Shown in pieces: positions 4,687-26,291 of a stretch of DNA of 27,206 nt. Where the stretch lies: IMG/VR virus record IMGVR_UViG_2563366822_000012, positions 1-27,206 of that record, one strand, 5' to 3'. Under the pieces are notes generated by a model. That model saw only the letters and a list, made by a program, of their open reading frames with translations. It had not been told where the DNA came from and ran no database searches. Each line of letters begins with the position of its first letter. Position 1 is the first letter of the stretch. The position numbers and the translations under genes are program-made. The stretch comes from a virus (taxonomy: Duplodnaviria; Heunggongvirae; Uroviricota; Caudoviricetes).

Positions 4687-5271
4687 TTACTCCGGATATT
4701 TAAAAATTACGTAGGTATGCGACGGGCAGAGTTTGTTAAGCACACACTCGACAACGGTGTCGCCCCAGATACGCAGTGCGGAATCACAGGGATCGCCACA
4801 TGTCATCCAGGTGGTGTTGGTGGTGGTTGGCATGTTGACCTGCCAGTAATACCGCCATTCCGGCGCATTCACCGCGTCAGTACAGGCCGATGAGCAGGTG
4901 AACGTGCTTTTGTCGTATCGCGTGATGGTGGCATCTGGTCTGCCCAGGGCAGCAAGCTGTGCAAGATAAAAATCCTCGTTGATGCCGCCCGCCAGGTTAA
5001 CCTTCGCATCCAGCCGTTGCTGACGCTGGCGAAGGGTCTGCGTTCCCGCCGGAATACATTCATCCGGCAGACCGCACAGACGCTCCCAGCGGTTTATCAG
5101 TTCAGTGGTGGTGCGCGGATCCAGCTCCCGCATCAGGGCATCCGCACGCTGATGAACGCGGGTTAATGACGGTGCCGCACCGGCAATCGCCGGATCGCTG
5201 ACTGACCACGCCGGACCGGGCGGCAACAGTGCCGACAACAGACGGATATAATCATCGTTTGTCACGTCCAT
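4687..5271 (-). CDS. Tail/baseplate protein, Mu gp48-like (YmfQ/DUF2313-like)
   Basis: 194-aa ORF tightly coupled between the baseplate J-like gene and the tail fibre gene; family assignment from memory. Confidence 0.75.
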
Positions 5272-6320
5272 GAAATCGTCCCCAGAACCGCCAGCTCATT
5301 TTTTGCAATGGAGATATTGTCCGCCGGTGCAAGCAACTGATGGCTGTATTCCCCGTTCGCACCGGAAATCGCCTCACTGATACGCGACACCTTCAGTTCT
5401 CCCTGCGGATAACCATCACGCAGCAGGAACGAACGCAACTCGGCGGTGATGGCAGCCCGTATTTCCGGTGTGTCCGGCGTCACGCGGATATGAAAATCCA
5501 CTTTATGCGCCACCGGCCTGAATACATACAAATCAGAGCCTGCCACCGGGGCCAGTGGCTCAATGTGTTGTCTTGCCGCCGTTTCCGTTGATTCTTCCGG
5601 AATGGGATTAATCAGGTCACTGCTGGCAATCATCACACCGACAGTTCCCGTTCCCATCCAGTGACGGTATGTCCATGCGCGGGTAATGCCGGGCACTTCT
5701 TTAGCCCAGACGACATAGTCCCCGTCAGCCCCGCCCTGAGGCGTCCAGTAATACCGCTCAATGACGCGGGCGCGCCACGTTTCCAGCTCTTCAGTATCAA
5801 ATCCGCCTGTAAGGGTGTCAGCCACACCGGAAGACGGCAGACCATTCACCGGCGTGACCAGGATTAATGCCGTACCGTCGTCAGCGTTACCGACCGCACC
5901 TGCACTTGAGCAGGCGATCGGCACGCGCAGGACACCACCGGAGCTGGTTGCATCGTCAGTTGTCGTGTACTGCACCAGGTCATCGCGCTGAATAACACTC
6001 CCGGCGGTCACCTTCAGGCCATCGCTGACACCTTCCCAGCGCATATACCCGCTGGCAGCCGTGGCCCCCTTGCGCGGACACCGTTTCATCGCAGCATGTC
6101 GCGCCAGCCAGGACTCATCGCACAGGTCAGGCAGCATGTTCATTGCCAGATAATCGATGTAACCGTAAACCGTATGCAGCGCCGCCGCATACACCTTTGC
6201 CCGCACGTCTTCATCCATGCGCCGGAGCGTGTCGCTGACGTCCAGCCTGGCGAATAAATCGTTACGGAGCATACTGATATTTTCTGCCAGCGTCGGGCGC
6301 TGAAATTCACTGTCCGCCAT
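5262..6320 (-). CDS. Baseplate J-like protein (Mu gp47-like)
   Basis: 352-aa ORF in the conserved Mu-type baseplate order; overlaps neighbours by a few nt (translational coupling). Confidence 0.85.
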
Positions 6321-10269: not shown

Positions 10270-10368
10270 AATCATCCCTTCAATCATTTGTAAGGAATGA
10301 TTATATTAACTACTTAAAGCTGAAAACCCAAATTATGCCAGACAAAAACACATTAATCATTTTGTACA

Positions 10369-12201
10369 CTACCTGAACCGCGTATAGCCAACATCATGGC
10401 TGACATCAAAACCGCTGGATCGCGTTTCCATAACCCGCATACCCGGAGGCGAATTCACAAAAGATACCTTGATCTCACCATCAACTTTTGGCACAGAAGC
10501 TTTGTTAATCATGAAGGGATTCGAGCCTGTGGCATCGGAGGCGTTGTTTGCCTGAGCCGGATCCACTACCGGATAAGGAGTGTATCCCCGTGGCGGTATT
10601 CCCGTCCCATAAGCATCATAAGCACCCGCGCCCCACTGCGCCGAGTTAATGGCATCGACCGTGTCACCGGAACTGTCGGTAAACCATTCAATAATCGGCT
10701 TCAGCTTGTCCCACATATCCTGAAACCACTTAACAACCGGTCCCCAGTTATTGATCACCATCCCCAGCGGCGACCAGGCAAAAACCTTCTTCAGAAGTTC
10801 CCAGCCTGCCTCAAAATAAGGACCAATAGTTTCCCAGAGCTTCTTGAAATAAGGTCCGACAACATCCCAGTTAGTGATAATTAATCCCGCAGCCAGAGCA
10901 ATCGCCGTCGCAATCATGCCAATCGGCGTCATCGACATGATCCTGCTGACAATACTGATGGCACCGCCCACGCCCATCAATCCCAGTTTCAGAATCGCAA
11001 GACCGGCAGCAAGCCCGACGACGCCGCGAATAACCCGGGGATTTTCATCCGCAAACTTCGTGAATTTCTCCCCCAACTCCCCCAGCCACTGCGTGATGTT
11101 CTTAGCGTCACCAGAAAATGCGCCGCCAATAGCCGCAAGGCCGTTAGTTGCGGTCCCCGTCATTGCCTCCCACAGGTTGGACAGCGTACCAAGCTGGGCC
11201 TGAACACGTTTATTCAGGCTGGCCTGTTTATTCATCTTCTGCTGGATCTGATCGTAGCCATCCTTTCCTTTATCGATCAGCGCATTGACCACCTGAAGGG
11301 TTTCGGCATCATCACCAAATATTGCCTTAAGTACACCGGTTCGCTTAACGTCGGTCAGTTTTCGCAGCTTTGCCAGTTGCCTGAACATGTTATCAAGACC
11401 GCCAAAACTCCCTTTGCCATCAGTAAAATCGAGCTGTACCCCGAGTTTCTGGCGGGCCATGATTTTATTGACGTCCCTGATTTTCTTAACGCTTAATCCG
11501 GACTGGATAACTTTTCGCAGGGCATTACCTGCCGACTCCCCGTTCATCCCCATTTGATCCATCATGACACTGATGGGGGCAAGACTCTGTGCAGCCTGAA
11601 GACCGTCCTTGTTCACCATCTTCAGAACAGAGCTGGTTTTAGTGAAGAATGACAACATGTTGGTGTCGTCAACGCCCAGATAAAACGCCTTCTGAATTGT
11701 GTCGAACAGCCCCATCATGTCTTCTGAGGCCGTTCCGGTAGCATCCTGCATCTTTGCAGCAAACTCAGCAGCCGCTTCCGGTGTTTTTTTCAGTTGTACC
11801 GCAAGATAAGCTGTCGCTTTACCCACACCACCAAGAATGTTTTCTGCCGGGATCCCCTGACGCACCAGCATCTGCATCATGTTCTGGAAATCAGCCGTTG
11901 TACCGGGTAGCTGGTTACCCAGGCCAATAGCCAGTTTATTGATGTCCTGAAAGCTCTTTCCAACCTCGCCGTTCGCATCCATCATGGCGACTTTCAGCCC
12001 GGTGGCGGCGTTTTCCTGATCGGCATAAGATTTCAGGGAAAGCGTCAGACCCGCTGCCAGTCCGCCACCAAGCGCCAGCCCACCCTGTGACGCTTCTTCC
12101 GCCTGGCGTTTAAATCCCCGGATTTTCTTTTGCATTTTCGACAGCGCGGGAGAAAGCCTGTCGACACCGGTGATCAACGCCTTAAGCTCAAATTCAGCCA
12201 T
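10369..12201 (-). CDS. Tail tape measure protein
   Basis: 610-aa ORF directly downstream of the frameshifted chaperone pair; Ala/Gly-rich with hydrophobic stretches typical of tape measure proteins; ATG at 12201. Confidence 0.9.
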   Translation of the reverse strand: MAEFELKALITGVDRLSPALSKMQKKIRGFKRQAEEASQGGLALGGGLAAGLTLSLKSYADQENAATGLKVAMMDANGEVGKSFQDINKLAIGLGNQLPGTTADFQNMMQMLVRQGIPAENILGGVGKATAYLAVQLKKTPEAAAEFAAKMQDATGTASEDMMGLFDTIQKAFYLGVDDTNMLSFFTKTSSVLKMVNKDGLQAAQSLAPISVMMDQMGMNGESAGNALRKVIQSGLSVKKIRDVNKIMARQKLGVQLDFTDGKGSFGGLDNMFRQLAKLRKLTDVKRTGVLKAIFGDDAETLQVVNALIDKGKDGYDQIQQKMNKQASLNKRVQAQLGTLSNLWEAMTGTATNGLAAIGGAFSGDAKNITQWLGELGEKFTKFADENPRVIRGVVGLAAGLAILKLGLMGVGGAISIVSRIMSMTPIGMIATAIALAAGLIITNWDVVGPYFKKLWETIGPYFEAGWELLKKVFAWSPLGMVINNWGPVVKWFQDMWDKLKPIIEWFTDSSGDTVDAINSAQWGAGAYDAYGTGIPPRGYTPYPVVDPAQANNASDATGSNPFMINKASVPKVDGEIKVSFVNSPPGMRVMETRSSGFDVSHDVGYTRFR

Positions 12202-22163: not shown

Positions 22164-22203
22164 ATGCGGCACTCCTGGTTAAATTTCATTTTTCGCGGGT
22201 ATA

Positions 22204-22252
22204 AAAAAACGATGGGGCGGGCAGTCCGGAAGACGTCAGGCTGCAGGGATTT
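22204..22252. other. GC-rich inverted repeat (GGGGCGGGC … GCCCGCCCC) between the HNH and small terminase genes; candidate cos / packaging-site element
   Basis: 8-9 bp GC stems flanking a ~32-nt spacer that itself contains GACGTC and CTGCAG palindromes. In HK97-like phages cos lies between the HNH gene and the small terminase gene. Functional assignment is inference. Confidence 0.3.
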
Positions 22253-22288
22253 GACCCGCCCCTCCCCTCATGCAGTTGAGAATTATTA

Positions 22289-22639
22289 TCACTTTAGCCG
22301 TTCACGGGCCGTCTTCGCCTTATGGCACGGCCAGCACAGGCTCTGCAGATTACTGTCTGCATCGGTGCCGCCATGCGCTTTAGGGATGATGTGGTCAACG
22401 GTTTTAGCTTCACGCACCACACCGGCACGCAGACATAACTGACACAGGCCGTTGTCACGTTTCAGCACACGCGCACGGATAACGTCCCACTTCGAACCGT
22501 AGCCGCGCTGATGACGGGATTGTCCTGGCTTGTATTGCTTCCAGCCTTCGCTTTTGTGGCTTTCGCAGTAGCCTGACGGGTCTGTCGTGGTATTACGGCA
22601 ACCTCGAGCACGGCAGGCTTTTGGGATTCGTGGCGGCAT
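22289..22639 (-). CDS. HNH endonuclease (terminase-associated, HK97 gp74-like)
   Basis: 116-aa ORF with Cys-x2-Cys pairs and …DHIIPKAHGGTDADSNLQSLCWPCH…; located immediately upstream of the small terminase gene. Confidence 0.85.
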   Translation of the reverse strand: MPPRIPKACRARGCRNTTTDPSGYCESHKSEGWKQYKPGQSRHQRGYGSKWDVIRARVLKRDNGLCQLCLRAGVVREAKTVDHIIPKAHGGTDADSNLQSLCWPCHKAKTARERLK

Positions 22640-23051
22640 ATGTACTAATCTCCGATTTATCCAAATTTCACTGCCATAATGCCGACATTCTCTGCCATTG
22701 TTGGCTCCGTTTATCCGTTAAAAGGGATATCAGTTAAGTTATCCCGTGCAGGGTATAAGCCATTGTCGAGACCACTCATTGAATGGTCTCTGCAATAACC
22801 GATGTCTTTCCATCAGTCCGCCCCACAAAGAATCTTTTTTGCCATAAGGCAGGAGGTTCATCTTTCAGTGGCTGCCAGTGTTATTTCCCCACTTACTGGC
22901 TTGGGTTGTTTCGTGGTACTGCCGTTAACTGGTGGCGCACAGATTTAGTTAAATCCGTTCTCGCATGATCCAGCTTTTACATACCTGGATTGTGAGGGAT
23001 GTAAATCACGGTTTCATTATCAAGCCCACCAGTAGATGGGCTTTGGAATGG

Positions 23052-23570
23052 TCACTTTGGCAGTCCGGGGATCGATATTTGCGCCTGCTGCTCAAGCCTT
23101 TCGATTCTTGCTATGAGTTGCGGTTTTTTGATCCTGCCCCAGCGGTTCAGCAAGCGTCCTGACATACTGGCAACATCCTTTTCCTTCATGAACTCCAGCA
23201 TTAACTCGTTGTGCTCTCTTTGGTATGAGTGAGCCAACTCCATCAGCCTGTCACGCATCCAATTAAATGCTTTGATAAACGCCTCTTTGATGGCGGCAGC
23301 TTTTTTGCCGGTAAACGACATGATGATGTACATCGCGCCGTCTTTGGAAATTTCATATTCAACATACTGATTACCCTTGTGTTCATAGGTAACCCGCGAA
23401 AAGTTGCTGGTTAGAAATTCATCCGAACAGTCTAGCTTTTCGATTTTCTGAATGATGTGGTGATGCTGCTTGTCGAAGTAAGCTGCTACCTTGCGGGAGG
23501 TTGTGATCACGCGATCACCAGAAACAACCACCATGTCCCGGAAATCGAGATTAGCCAATTGATGATTCAT
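23052..23570 (-). CDS. Rha-family phage regulatory protein
   Basis: ORF track gives 23052..23783; the internal ATG at 23570 (MNHQLANLDFRDMVVVSGDRVITTSRKVAAYFDKQHHHIIQKIEKL…) matches the usual Rha N-terminus. The upstream 71 codons overlap a structured intergenic region and are probably not translated. Confidence 0.75.
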   Translation of the reverse strand: MNHQLANLDFRDMVVVSGDRVITTSRKVAAYFDKQHHHIIQKIEKLDCSDEFLTSNFSRVTYEHKGNQYVEYEISKDGAMYIIMSFTGKKAAAIKEAFIKAFNWMRDRLMELAHSYQREHNELMLEFMKEKDVASMSGRLLNRWGRIKKPQLIARIERLEQQAQISIPGLPK

Positions 23571-23710
23571 AGCGTCTTTACCTTTTAGAAAGTGAGCCTG
23601 TCTCACAGAAAAGCCGCCCGAGAGAGGTCGCCACCTATAACGGCTTTTCTCAGGCTCGCTTACTGAAAGGCTCTCGTTAATATGCGCGTGAGATGCGCTG
23701 TGAAATTCAG

Positions 23711-23737
23711 ATATAAAAAAGCCCCGCACCGCGAGGC
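23711..23737 (-). terminator. Putative intrinsic terminator downstream of the lysis cassette
   Basis: Minus-strand GCCTCGCGGTGCGGGGC (imperfect hairpin) followed by TTTTTTAT, about 35 nt after the Rz stop. Confidence 0.4.
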
Positions 23738-23770
23738 TCATTAAATTGACTTTGTGATTTGCAAAAAAAT

Positions 23771-24232
23771 TTATTTCAGGCATTGCGTCCTGATGTATTC
23801 CTGCAGGTAGTTAACCTGCGCGGTTATCCTGTCGATTCCGCTTCGTAGACGGTAATAATTGAGTTCAGCATCTGCTGTAAGTCTTGGGCTTTCTCCATCG
23901 CCCATGCTGCTGGCTCCGGTCGTTGACTTTGCACAGGTGGCGGCGACTTGCAGGCGCTTACGCCCAGCAGAAACATCAGCACGGAGACTTTCGATAGTCG
24001 CGTTAGCATCAGCAAGCTCCTTTGTATATCTGGCATCGAGTTCTGCTACGTCACGTTGACGCTTCTGCATATCAGAGATCGTCGCCATAGCCGAATCTAA
24101 TGCCATAGCGTTTTCGTCGCGCTGTTTTTTGTATTCAATGGCTTTATTGTGGTAATGATTAGCTGACCAGACGAGAGAACCGAATAAAGTCAGGAGAAAA
24201 GCAGAAATAACCAGCTTATAGCGAAGTTTCAT
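23771..24232 (-). CDS. Rz: Rz i-spanin (inner-membrane spanin subunit)
   Basis: ORF track starts at TTG 24265; ATG 24232 gives [27 protein letters not shown]…, an N-terminal membrane anchor followed by a coiled-coil region, laid out like lambda Rz; follows R. Confidence 0.85.
   Translation of the reverse strand: MKLRYKLVISAFLLTLFGSLVWSANHYHNKAIEYKKQRDENAMALDSAMATISDMQKRQRDVAELDARYTKELADANATIESLRADVSAGRKRLQVAATCAKSTTGASSMGDGESPRLTADAELNYYRLRSGIDRITAQVNYLQEYIRTQCLK
23824..24009 (-). CDS. Rz1: Rz1 o-spanin lipoprotein, embedded in the +1 frame of Rz
   Basis: ATG 24009 gives MLTRLSKVSVLMFLLGVSAC-KSPPPVQSQRPEPAAW…: signal peptide with lipobox-like LGVSAC, then a proline-rich mature region. Entirely nested within Rz, as in lambda. 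Confidence 0.65.
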   Translation of the reverse strand: MLTRLSKVSVLMFLLGVSACKSPPPVQSQRPEPAAWAMEKAQDLQQMLNSIITVYEAESTG

Positions 24233-25559: not shown

Positions 25560-25625
25560 ACTACCACAACGAGCGAATTAACCCATCGTTGGGTCAAATT
25601 TACCCAACTTTATTCAAAAAGTCAA
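25560..25625 (-). promoter_or_regulatory. Late promoter PR' (-35 TTGACT, -10 TAAATT, 17-bp spacer) with adjacent qut site for Q loading
   Basis: Minus-strand TTGACT (plus 25620-25625) and TAAATT (plus 25597-25602); the downstream segment TTGACCCAACGATGGGTTAATTCGCTCGTTGTGGTAG matches lambda PR'/qut from memory with one mismatch. Confidence 0.6.
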
Positions 25626-25667: not shown

Positions 25668-26291
25668 CTAACGTGTGACCGCATTCAAAATGTTGTCTGC
25701 GATTGACTCTTCTTTGTGGCATTGCACCACCAGAGCGTCATACAGCGGCTTAACAGTGCGTGACCAGGTGGGTTGAGTAAGGTTTGGGATTAGCATCGTT
25801 ACAGCGCGATATGCGGCGCTTGCTGGCATTCTTGAATAGCCGACACCTTTGCATCTTCCGCATTCTTTCTCAACAACTCTCCCCCACTGCTCTGTTTTGG
25901 CAATATCAACCGCCCGACCTGTACCGTGGCAATCTCTGCATCTTGCGCCCGGAGTCGCGGCACTACGGCAATAATCAGCATAAGCGAATGTTGCGAGCAC
26001 TTGCAGTACCTTTGCCTTAGTATTTCCTTCGAGCTTTGCCACACCACGGTATTTCCCCGATACCTTGTGTGCAAATTGCATCAGATAGTTGATAGCCTTT
26101 TGTTTGTCGTTCTGGCTGAGTTCGTGCTTACCACAGAATGCAGCCATTCCGAATCCGGCTTGTGATTGCGCCATCCCCATAGCAGCCATCACATCAGTAC
26201 CGGAAAGAGAGTCAGAAGCCGTAGCCCGTGGTGAGTCGCTCATCATCGGGCTTTTTGGCGAATGAAATTTAGCTACGTTTTCGAGTCTCAT
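25668..26291 (-). CDS. Q: Late-gene antiterminator Q (lambda-type)
   Basis: 207-aa [34 protein letters not shown]… with the zinc-binding CRDCHGTGR…CGRCKG motif; near-identical to lambda Q from memory. Confidence 0.93.

Follow-up and report, generated by a model that had tools for sequence, protein, structure and literature searches.

A 412-bp gap between the rha and HNH genes of a prophage is largely a widely shared late-operon linker with covarying RNA-type hairpins

The virus record IMGVR_UViG_2563366822_000012 (Caudoviricetes), whose positions 1 to 27,206 make up the stretch of DNA analyzed here (the window), has a gap of 412 bp (22640-23051) between a rha gene and an HNH gene. Most of this gap (22689-23051, 363 bp) is a shared module with 95 to 99% identity to unannotated DNA of phages HK620, HK97, HK106, Sf6 and, in part, P22, and 22640-22688 alone is specific to this prophage type. 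The module carries two hairpins of one family, whose stems covary as RNA of the late-gene strand, and between them an ultraconserved noncoding core that is part of an RNA detected in P22. With a confidence only slightly above even, we favor an explanation in which the gap belongs to the Q-dependent late message as an intercistronic segment that is untranslated and in part structured and that derives from a shared mosaic linker, with hairpins that would work as processing or stability signals and as crossover points.

The gap is bordered by the stop codon of rha (TGA, 23054-23052) and the start codon of the HNH gene (ATG, 22639-22637), both on the minus strand. The first-pass annotation of this DNA had described such a gap, and both its coordinates and the absence of minus-strand open reading frames (ORFs) of 60 amino acids (aa) or more were confirmed, the longest ones touching the gap having 40, 29, 23, and 22 aa. 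The AT-rich stretches that it had mentioned amount only to a mild bias (GC content of 0.449 in the gap versus 0.521 in the window). The inverted repeat that it had singled out, GAGACCA and TGGTCTC separated by 9 nt, lies exactly at 22768-22790, occurs once in the window, and extends to imperfect arms of 17 nt (22762-22796). It had been called isolated, but a paralogous perfect 7-bp repeat, AAGCCCA-8-TGGGCTT, is found at 23022-23043. Such repeats are commonplace by chance, as the window contains 51 perfect 7-bp repeats with loops of 3 to 15 nt (ca. 0.77 per 412 bp) and at least one appeared in 24% of the dinucleotide shuffles of the gap, so that their significance comes from conservation and covariation and not from their mere presence.

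Both repeats belong to hairpins with a common design. Hairpin A (23049-23016, minus strand), located 2 nt past the rha stop codon, reads AUUCCA-AAGCCCAUC-UACU-GGUGGGCUU-GAUAAU, and hairpin D (22796-22762, minus strand), which contains the repeat noted earlier, reads AUUGCA-GAGACCA-loop-UGGUCUC-GACAAU. Together with hairpin E, found in other phages, they share the frame ATTRCA, a 7-bp stem, a loop, the complementary stem, and GAYAAT, with stem sequences that differ. The architecture has two tiers, a lower stem AUUR/YAAU (which in hairpin D can be extended by flanking bases, 22757-22800) and an upper stem of 7 to 10 bp, separated by a 2x2 internal loop CA/GA. Most copies of hairpin A have a C(UACG)G tetraloop. 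A covariance model of the family (R1) recovered hairpin A with an E value of 2.7e-10 and hairpin D with 3.9e-10, the next-best match in the 27-kb window having an E value of 3.7. The complete genomes of HK620 and HK97 gave two matches each, all in the late direction, and 914 kb of related loci gave 167, nearly all of them at this locus and in the late orientation wherever this was checked.

Among 39 distinct copies, 95.8% of the cells were paired and 6 of 11 pairs changed on both sides, including a change from A-U to G-C in the lower stem. The stem variants of hairpin D (GAGACC/GGUCUC, GAGGCC/GGUCUC, GAGGCC/GGCCUC in P22, and GGGGCU/GGUCUC in phage L) are all paired as sense RNA, and G·U pairs are common on the sense strand. 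Since a G·U pair becomes an A·C mismatch on the other strand, the constraint is on the sense RNA and not on double-stranded DNA. Folding energies follow the same strand, as the whole gap folds with -116.4 kcal/mol (z = -5.0) as minus-strand RNA and -116.0 kcal/mol (z = -3.1) as plus-strand RNA, with consensus folding at -47.9 versus -36.1 kcal/mol. Hairpins A (-17.7 kcal/mol, z = -4.5) and D (-24.2 kcal/mol, z = -6.5) are both stable. We rejected them as Rho-independent terminators: they lack a U-tract, being followed by GAUAAUGAAA and GACAAUGGCU, respectively, there was no minus-strand site in the terminator scan, and only a hairpin farther downstream (22745-22720, see below) has a UUUU run.

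The family is not limited to this locus. An independent pattern scan, in which the frame alone was fixed and six stem pairs were left free, returned ca. 45 further distinct hairpins of 34 nt with many inner stems and UNCG-type tetraloops. The six free pairs were paired in 93.1% of the cells, compared to 69.6% in shuffled sequences, and all six changed on both sides, with G·U pairs plentiful in the sense orientation and in that one only. These hairpins stand 1 to 6 nt past a stop codon in 81 of 92 cases, mostly behind a major tail protein gene with an immunoglobulin-like end (phrog_853), and the next gene begins 14 to 21 nt later. They occupy fixed, nonmosaic positions in unrelated prophages, with no linker there. 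Family hairpins follow accessory genes elsewhere in late operons, too. The tail-gene hairpins come from viral contigs L145 to L264, stand 1 to 5 nt past the tail-gene stop codons, and show the frame AUUACAAAG...CUUGAUAAU (e.g., L147, 4799-4832); the one tail-gene locus searched, L147, matched a single phage record, from a Providencia phage, at 77.7% identity. In another contig (L031), two family hairpins (5008-5041 and 5629-5662) were seen between the Q and holin genes, one after an 89-aa ORF and the other after a 172-aa ORF that by eye resembles an HNH-type homing nuclease. A literature search on the hairpin motif itself gave nothing relevant.

The comparison with related prophages that the first-pass annotation had proposed revealed how widely the linker is shared. 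Positions 22689-23051 match 194 phage records at 90 to 99% identity, and 2542 of 5426 complete Escherichia coli genomes have a match, with at least 80% of the gap covered in 265 of them. In the annotated records inspected (HK620, HK97, HK106, Sf6, P22, phage L, Louie, APC_JM3.2, and the Stx-type phage 2851), the matching DNA is mostly unannotated, and it always lies in the late operon, with lysis or accessory genes on one side and packaging genes on the other. The neighbors themselves vary, with rha, kilA-N plus hkbL, gp73, an anti-CRISPR gene, a GIY-YIG nuclease gene, or Sf6 gp65 upstream and a DUF2560, HNH, orf118-type, or small terminase gene downstream, and the linker joins P22-like, HK97-like, P27-type-terminase, and Stx-type modules. 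For hkbM, the literature search turned up only unrelated papers. The module alignment comprised ten annotated loci, to which a further 120 loci from viral contigs were added, and the module counts given below are over 140 loci.

Nucleotide diversity of core C, hairpin D, and the spacer is 0.02 to 0.04. In the adjacent DUF2560 gene it is 0.037, 0.022, and 0.107 at first, second, and third codon positions, respectively; the noncoding segments are about as diverse as its codon positions 1 and 2 and three to four times less diverse than its third positions. The linker is confined to Escherichia, Shigella, Salmonella, and Shimwellia. Among species-representative genomes, the core was found only in E. 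coli, Shimwellia, and mis-binned contigs, besides two chance matches in Bacteroidales genes, and phage records contained no distant copies of the core (below ca. 85% identity). Several element-bearing contigs of enterobacterial phages (L135 to L137, L140, L141, and L143) are filed under metagenome-assembled genomes of Cellvibrionaceae, Nanosynbacter, Bacillota, and Collinsella, which are probably binning errors.

Core C (22925-22801, minus strand; 125 nt, ACGGCAG...GGAAAGACAUC) is ultraconserved and noncoding, and the DNA that abuts it on either side differs between phages. Its 104 distinct copies have few polymorphic sites and a diversity of 0.024, or ca. 0.029 when the 21 bases fixed by the search pattern are excluded. 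A full-text search with the core sequence led to one paper, PMC13397905 (Naaz et al., Noncoding RNA 2026), which describes small-RNA sequencing of P22-infected Salmonella with ten phage loci. One of these, P22G, is given in its Table 2 at 21,873-22,076 of P22 (204 nt, late-gene direction, 374-488 reads per million) with "no known function." Positions 22934-22783 of the window (minus strand), i.e., core C and the 5' arm of hairpin D, align with nt 50-204 of P22G at 92.9% identity over 155 columns. P22G consists of the 3' end of P22 rha, the entire core C, and the 5' arm of hairpin D, and the window has no counterpart of its first 49 nt, which come from P22 rha. The two stretches are alike in lying on the late-gene strand, after a rha-type gene and before the packaging genes, and in ending in the same hairpin. 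They differ in what comes next, which is pid in P22 and the shared start region and the HNH gene in the window. An RNA species from this element is detected in P22, and P22G may be what remains, as a stable product, after processing of the late mRNA. The first-pass annotation had considered a small regulatory RNA, an idea that the homology to P22G supports in part. For the P22-like prophage BTP1, the accessible text of the transcriptome study lists no RNA from this position.

Several folds and functions of the core were considered and rejected. A folded core or pseudoknot (GCCAGU/ACUGGC with AGUGG/CCACU) was no better than shuffles, its stem is broken by common polymorphisms without compensation, and a third loop of 2 nt would be sterically implausible. 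A Rho-loading site was dismissed in view of the lack of a marked excess of C over G (C/G of ca. 1.1 to 1.2). Between the core and the remaining transcripts of the window, complementarity amounted to chance-level 10- to 12-mers only. The core of the window lacks one T at ca. 22822-22823 (GTGG-GGCGG) compared to all other copies in the locus alignment. In one prophage (L022, ca. 10340-10420), the A-run of the core is interrupted by an insertion sequence, IS3-family by its look, whose first ORF has an IS629/IS1203-like start, MTKNTRFSPEVRQRAV. The core of Shimwellia (L138) has the rare substitutions CCCCC for CCTCC and GGGCTG for GGACTG.

The gap lies deep inside the late operon. The late genes of the prophage are on the minus strand throughout, in the order Q antiterminator (25668-26291), holin, lysozyme, Rz, rha, the gap, HNH, and small and large terminase, followed by portal, protease, capsid, and contractile tail genes, with an integrase gene and a tRNA-Arg at the far end. 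Pfam matches for the genes flanking the gap were Phage_pRha, HNH, Terminase_4, and TerL. A promoter-like site, TTGACT-17-TAAATT, is located at 25625-25597 (minus strand), directly downstream of the Q gene (Pfam Antiterm) and 2.6 kb upstream of the gap. Its hexamers are those of lambda pR', and late transcription of the operon with the gap probably begins here. The site overlaps an inverted repeat (25588-25608) that the scan marked as terminator-like on the plus strand. Closer to the gap, the promoter and terminator prediction that the first-pass annotation had recommended found no sigma-70-like promoter on either strand of 22200-23500 and reported no minus-strand terminator. Its terminator-like matches, a weak plus-strand one at 22835-22856 in the gap and one at 22515-22527 within the HNH gene, equal the number expected from shuffles. 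Rfam 15 gave nothing within the gap at a permissive threshold, and no tRNA-like element was found there.

The remaining parts of the gap are more variable. Segment B (23015-22926, minus strand) is a variable spacer with local hairpins (folding z = -2.3), present in the window in its long form, which is common to HK620, HK106, and Sf6; a short form (ca. 30 nt) is found in HK97 and phage L, and B is absent in P22. Over the 140 loci, hairpin A was accompanied by a long B in 44 and by a short B in 49, and 40 were without hairpin A. Past hairpin D, a weak terminator-like hairpin can be read from the sequence at 22745-22720 (minus strand; GGGAUA, a 10-nt loop, UAUCCC, and UUUU; -8.3 kcal/mol, z = -2.8). 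It is kept in HK620, HK97, and the Stx-type phage 2851; the terminator scan did not report it, as its loop exceeds 8 nt. It is followed by a shared translation start (22710-22693, minus strand), with the ribosome site ACGGAG at 22710-22705 and an ATG at 22698-22696 (ATGGCA). This site and start lead into a DUF2560 gene in 92 of the loci, an orf118-type gene in 7, a small terminase gene in 4, and a stub of the window type in 9. Homology of the window to other phages stops at 22689, after ATGGCAGAGA, and the shared start therefore opens only a stub of 13 codons, MAENVGIMAVKFG (22698-22657, minus strand, with its stop codon at 22659-22657). The HNH leader (22656-22640, minus strand; GGAG at 22653-22650, with the ATG at 22639 following 10 nt later) is common only to prophages with the same arrangement of HNH and P27-type terminase genes, such as E. 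coli CP53.

Genes come and go at defined points of the linker. In 45 of the 140 loci, the last base of C, at the end of GACATC, is the exact insertion point of a cargo gene, behind which comes hairpin E; these cargo genes are of at least four unrelated kinds. The slot is empty, with hairpin D directly after C, in 92 loci, the window included. Upstream, cargo genes end 2 to 10 nt before hairpin A, whose homologues stand past the stop codons of rha, hkbL, gp73, anti-CRISPR, GIY-YIG, and Sf6 gp65 genes. In P22, the pid gene comes just after hairpin D. In phage 2851, hairpin A is fused to sequence normally found after hairpin D, segments B, C, and D being absent; locus L123 has a chimera of two hairpin types, E for the left arm and D for the right; and in Shimwellia pseudoproteus (L138), ca. 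200 bp of unrelated DNA is inserted at the loop of hairpin A, behind its left arm, after rha. The joints vary in their exact position, which fits homologous or microhomology recombination at conserved frames and not a site-specific recombinase. The P22 record AB426868 (L009, ca. 712-1290) leaves pid, which is opposite to the late genes and has a clear terminator, unannotated, and its annotated ORF25 starts within the loop of hairpin D and is not conserved in other phages. Sf6 gene 66, a cargo gene ("Gp49 family"), was compared with HK97 gp49, and the idea of a relationship was dropped, as there was no similarity and the weak model match there was at chance level.

On the reading that we favor, a single late transcript would start at pR' beside the Q gene, and Q would make it resistant to terminators. 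In the RNA of the transcribed minus strand, the repeat would work as a hairpin, one of two family copies in the gap. The hairpins would be barriers to 3' exonucleases and processing signals that set the survival of the upstream segments of the message and, with the core between them, may leave a stable RNA of ca. 150 to 200 nt, the counterpart of P22G. The stabilizing or processing role is suggested by the position of hairpins just past stop codons, by their stability and tetraloops, and by the precedent of stem-loops after major structural genes. The conserved hairpin frames amid variable neighbors would also be the crossover points for accessory cassettes and whole packaging modules, and the conserved ribosome site and start would now translate only the 13-codon stub before the HNH gene.

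Several observations weigh against this explanation. Core C folds no better than chance (-27.8 kcal/mol, z = +0.13) and shows no covariation, so that the hairpin model leaves its conservation unexplained. The 3' end of P22G is at the top of the 5' arm of hairpin D, whereas a simple barrier to 3' exonucleases would predict an end past the full hairpin. P22G comes from one small-RNA sequencing study, which checked only two of six new RNAs by reverse transcription-PCR and, in its accessible text, does not say which two (PMC13397905), and it may be a decay fragment. Hairpin D follows the noncoding core and not the stop codon of a real gene; in Sf6 and others, the related hairpin E does stand after the inserted gene, i.e., past a stop codon. 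The search patterns fixed the hairpin frames, and frame conservation is partly by construction. Finally, all copies are at least ca. 85% identical, and a recent spread by recombination could explain much of the conservation.

The first alternative is a trans-acting small RNA (sRNA). Core and hairpin D would be the E. coli prophage version of P22G, made from the late transcript or from a promoter of its own, and would pair with mRNAs of the host or phage via the unstructured, sequence-conserved core. P22G was indeed detected in infected cells (PMC13397905), with a window copy that is 92.9% identical; the core is kept in sequence and not in structure, as expected of a pairing region; the hairpin and U-run at 22745-22720 could supply a typical sRNA 3' end; and lambda has been reported to encode Hfq-dependent sRNAs, some of them in the late operon (bioRxiv 10.1101/2024.10.31.621285). 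However, no promoter was found, complementarity to window transcripts stayed at the chance level of 10 to 12 nt, the core of the window has a 1-nt deletion, an insertion sequence or indels are found in the core of other copies that look viable, and the 5' part of P22G lies inside P22 rha, which is not shared with the window. We regard this explanation as unlikely.

A similarly low probability is given to a pure recombination linker, devoid of RNA function and conserved only through frequent homologous exchange among lambdoid phages at the border of lysis and packaging genes. The same linker DNA does join unlike modules at defined points, its copies are all at least ca. 85% identical and limited to Escherichia, Shigella, Salmonella, and Shimwellia, and phage 2851 does without B, C, and D altogether. 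What neutral linker DNA would not be expected to show is stem changes that are compensatory and strand specific, a diversity three to four times below that of neighboring synonymous sites, or the same hairpin frame after the major tail genes of unrelated prophages, with no linker present. The idea of modular evolution and the term "boundary sequences" reportedly appear in the HK620 and Sf6 genome papers. The linker resembles such boundary sequences of lambdoid phages in being conserved noncoding DNA between nonhomologous, interchangeable modules across phages, with homology that breaks at the edges. The Sf6 record annotates one of them as bsq7, and neither it nor the HK620 record annotates the linker segment. 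In contrast, the segment of the window is far longer (ca. 360 bp), internally structured, and marked by covariation of the RNA type.

A transcriptional insulator seems quite improbable to us. In a lysogen, the hairpins, the weak terminator-like one, and an untranslated RNA of ca. 350 nt accessible to Rho would keep transcription of accessory genes that the prophage expresses from reaching the packaging genes, and in lytic growth Q-modified polymerase would ignore these barriers. The long untranslated stretch and the hairpin followed by UUUU at 22745-22720 are in keeping with this, as are accessory genes here that can be expressed independently, since the pid gene of P22 and BTP1, in the equivalent region, is highly expressed (PMC8835761, PMC7067206). 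Nevertheless, hairpins A and D are without a U-tract, the core has no marked bias to C over G (C/G of ca. 1.1 to 1.2), and the terminator-like hairpin is weak (-8.3 kcal/mol, 10-nt loop).

The finding of a conserved small protein gene that explains the gap was named in the first-pass annotation as the result that would speak against it, and none was found. Candidates were a 28-aa ORF, MNLLPYGKKDSLWWRTDGKTSVIAETIQ, a 35-aa ORF starting MAKKILCGGG, or the 40-aa fusion of both in the window. The 28-aa ORF has its 21-codon start intact in most copies, and the 35-aa ORF occurs in 22 of 24 full-length copies, the one in phage Louie being annotated. The mini-ORFs that overlap C and D, however, have frameshifts or stops in ca. 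10 of 131 copies, including the window, with nearly all substitutions changing amino acids, and the 35-aa ORF has premature stops in 2 of 24 full-length copies. The locus alignment shows a TGG turned into a stop codon in HK106 (TAG) and HK97 (TGA). The C termini of the gap ORFs differ with each cargo variant, there is no good ribosome site (CCUCC precedes the ATG of the 35-aa ORF), and no Pfam or PHROG match was obtained, so that we consider a small protein very unlikely. Two plus-strand ORFs of 61 and 65 aa were discarded, as their frames are broken in homologues by an indel and module changes.

The first-pass annotation had named a promoter and operator of the packaging and head operon as one possibility; the repeat would then be a protein-binding operator. 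In favor of this are the location of the gap ahead of the HNH and terminase genes, the palindromic form of the repeat, and the putative regulator encoded by the adjoining rha. Against this, there is no sigma-70-like site, and pR' and Q lie upstream of a region that is entirely co-oriented. The authors of the HK620 record, who annotated many promoters, operators, and terminators, placed none at the linker, and the same hairpins are present in phages without rha. Common polymorphisms of the repeat break the symmetry of the DNA and keep G·U pairing in the sense RNA, which argues against an operator, and this role of the gap is now hardly probable. Least credible of all are sites for cassette exchange at the DNA level, like attC of integrons folded as single-stranded DNA: the layout of a gene and an imperfect palindrome with conserved ends and a covarying, paired middle is similar, as is the presence or absence of cassettes between hairpins, but the ends ATTRCA/GAYAAT are unlike the attC core sites (RYYYAAC and GTTRRRY), the sole integrase gene among the ORFs annotated is that of the prophage (1209-2402, ca. 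20 kb away) and no integron integrase, crossover positions vary (loop, 3' frame, or upstream GACATC) while tail-gene copies are fixed and nonmosaic, and the pairing points to RNA.

Among known systems, the hairpins can be likened to stem-loops behind highly expressed genes of phage late operons. T4 CUUCGG hairpins and T7 RNase III sites are stem-loops of this sort, and the HK97 record AF069529 annotates putative terminators after the major head and tail genes. The likeness consists of stable hairpins a few bases past a stop codon in a polycistronic message, with UNCG-type tetraloops in many family members. The family in the window differs in its two-tier frame AUUACA...GAUAAU, in having no U-tract, and in following, in the window, rha and a noncoding core and not a major structural gene. 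The pid locus of P22 (Cenens et al. 2013, PMC3573128; Wolput et al. 2022, PMC8835761) has an equivalent place among the late genes, with hairpin D on one side and the DUF2560 gene orf80 on the other, but pid codes for a protein, runs in the opposite direction, and has a promoter and terminator of its own, and the window has no insert there. The element is a new copy of something that well-known phages already carry and that has lately turned up as an RNA in P22. Recognition of the hairpin family and of the slot for cargo genes makes the picture more detailed without defining a new kind of system.

Some features of the neighborhood were noted along the way. The mechanically called rha ORF has 243 aa, and its homologues are annotated with 172 aa and a start near 23570, so that ca. 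200 nt between Rz and rha (the 23571-23783 region) are probably untranslated. The single Rfam match, the microRNA family mir-627, falls in this spacer, outside the gap, with an E value of 0.044, far below the gathering score and at chance level, and it suggests a hairpin there. P22F, a small RNA from the equivalent spacer of P22, has no homology to the spacer between Rz and rha. On the other side, a noncoding gap of 116 bp (22173-22288) separates the HNH gene from the small terminase gene, the position at which HK97-like phages presumably have their cos site. A tRNA-Arg (anticodon CCU, 1009-1083) adjoins the tyrosine integrase gene (1209-2402), and this region is probably the attachment site of the prophage and one of its ends.

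A bolder proposal, to which we assign a distinctly low probability, is that the core is the working part of a widespread sRNA, which would be released from the late transcript by cleavage and would reprogram gene expression of the host or the phage in lytic growth, with the hairpins as a dedicated signal, recognized by a protein, for processing and for docking cassettes in the late operons of enterobacterial phages at large. If true, this would be a modular system by which accessory genes are plugged into the late operon without disturbing it. In any case, the core offers a concrete target for experiments on phage small RNAs, as it is ultraconserved, unstructured, and with a reported RNA product. 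The locus is a swap site for anti-CRISPR, rha, kilA, nuclease, and pid genes and for whole packaging modules, and if the hairpins set stability or guide insertion, this would help to explain how accessory genes are gained without disturbance and why the joints recur at the same positions. For annotation, the recurrent "empty" gap of 350 to 800 bp in HK97, HK620, P22, and thousands of prophages now has an explanation, and the linker is among the most widely shared noncoding phage DNA in E. coli.

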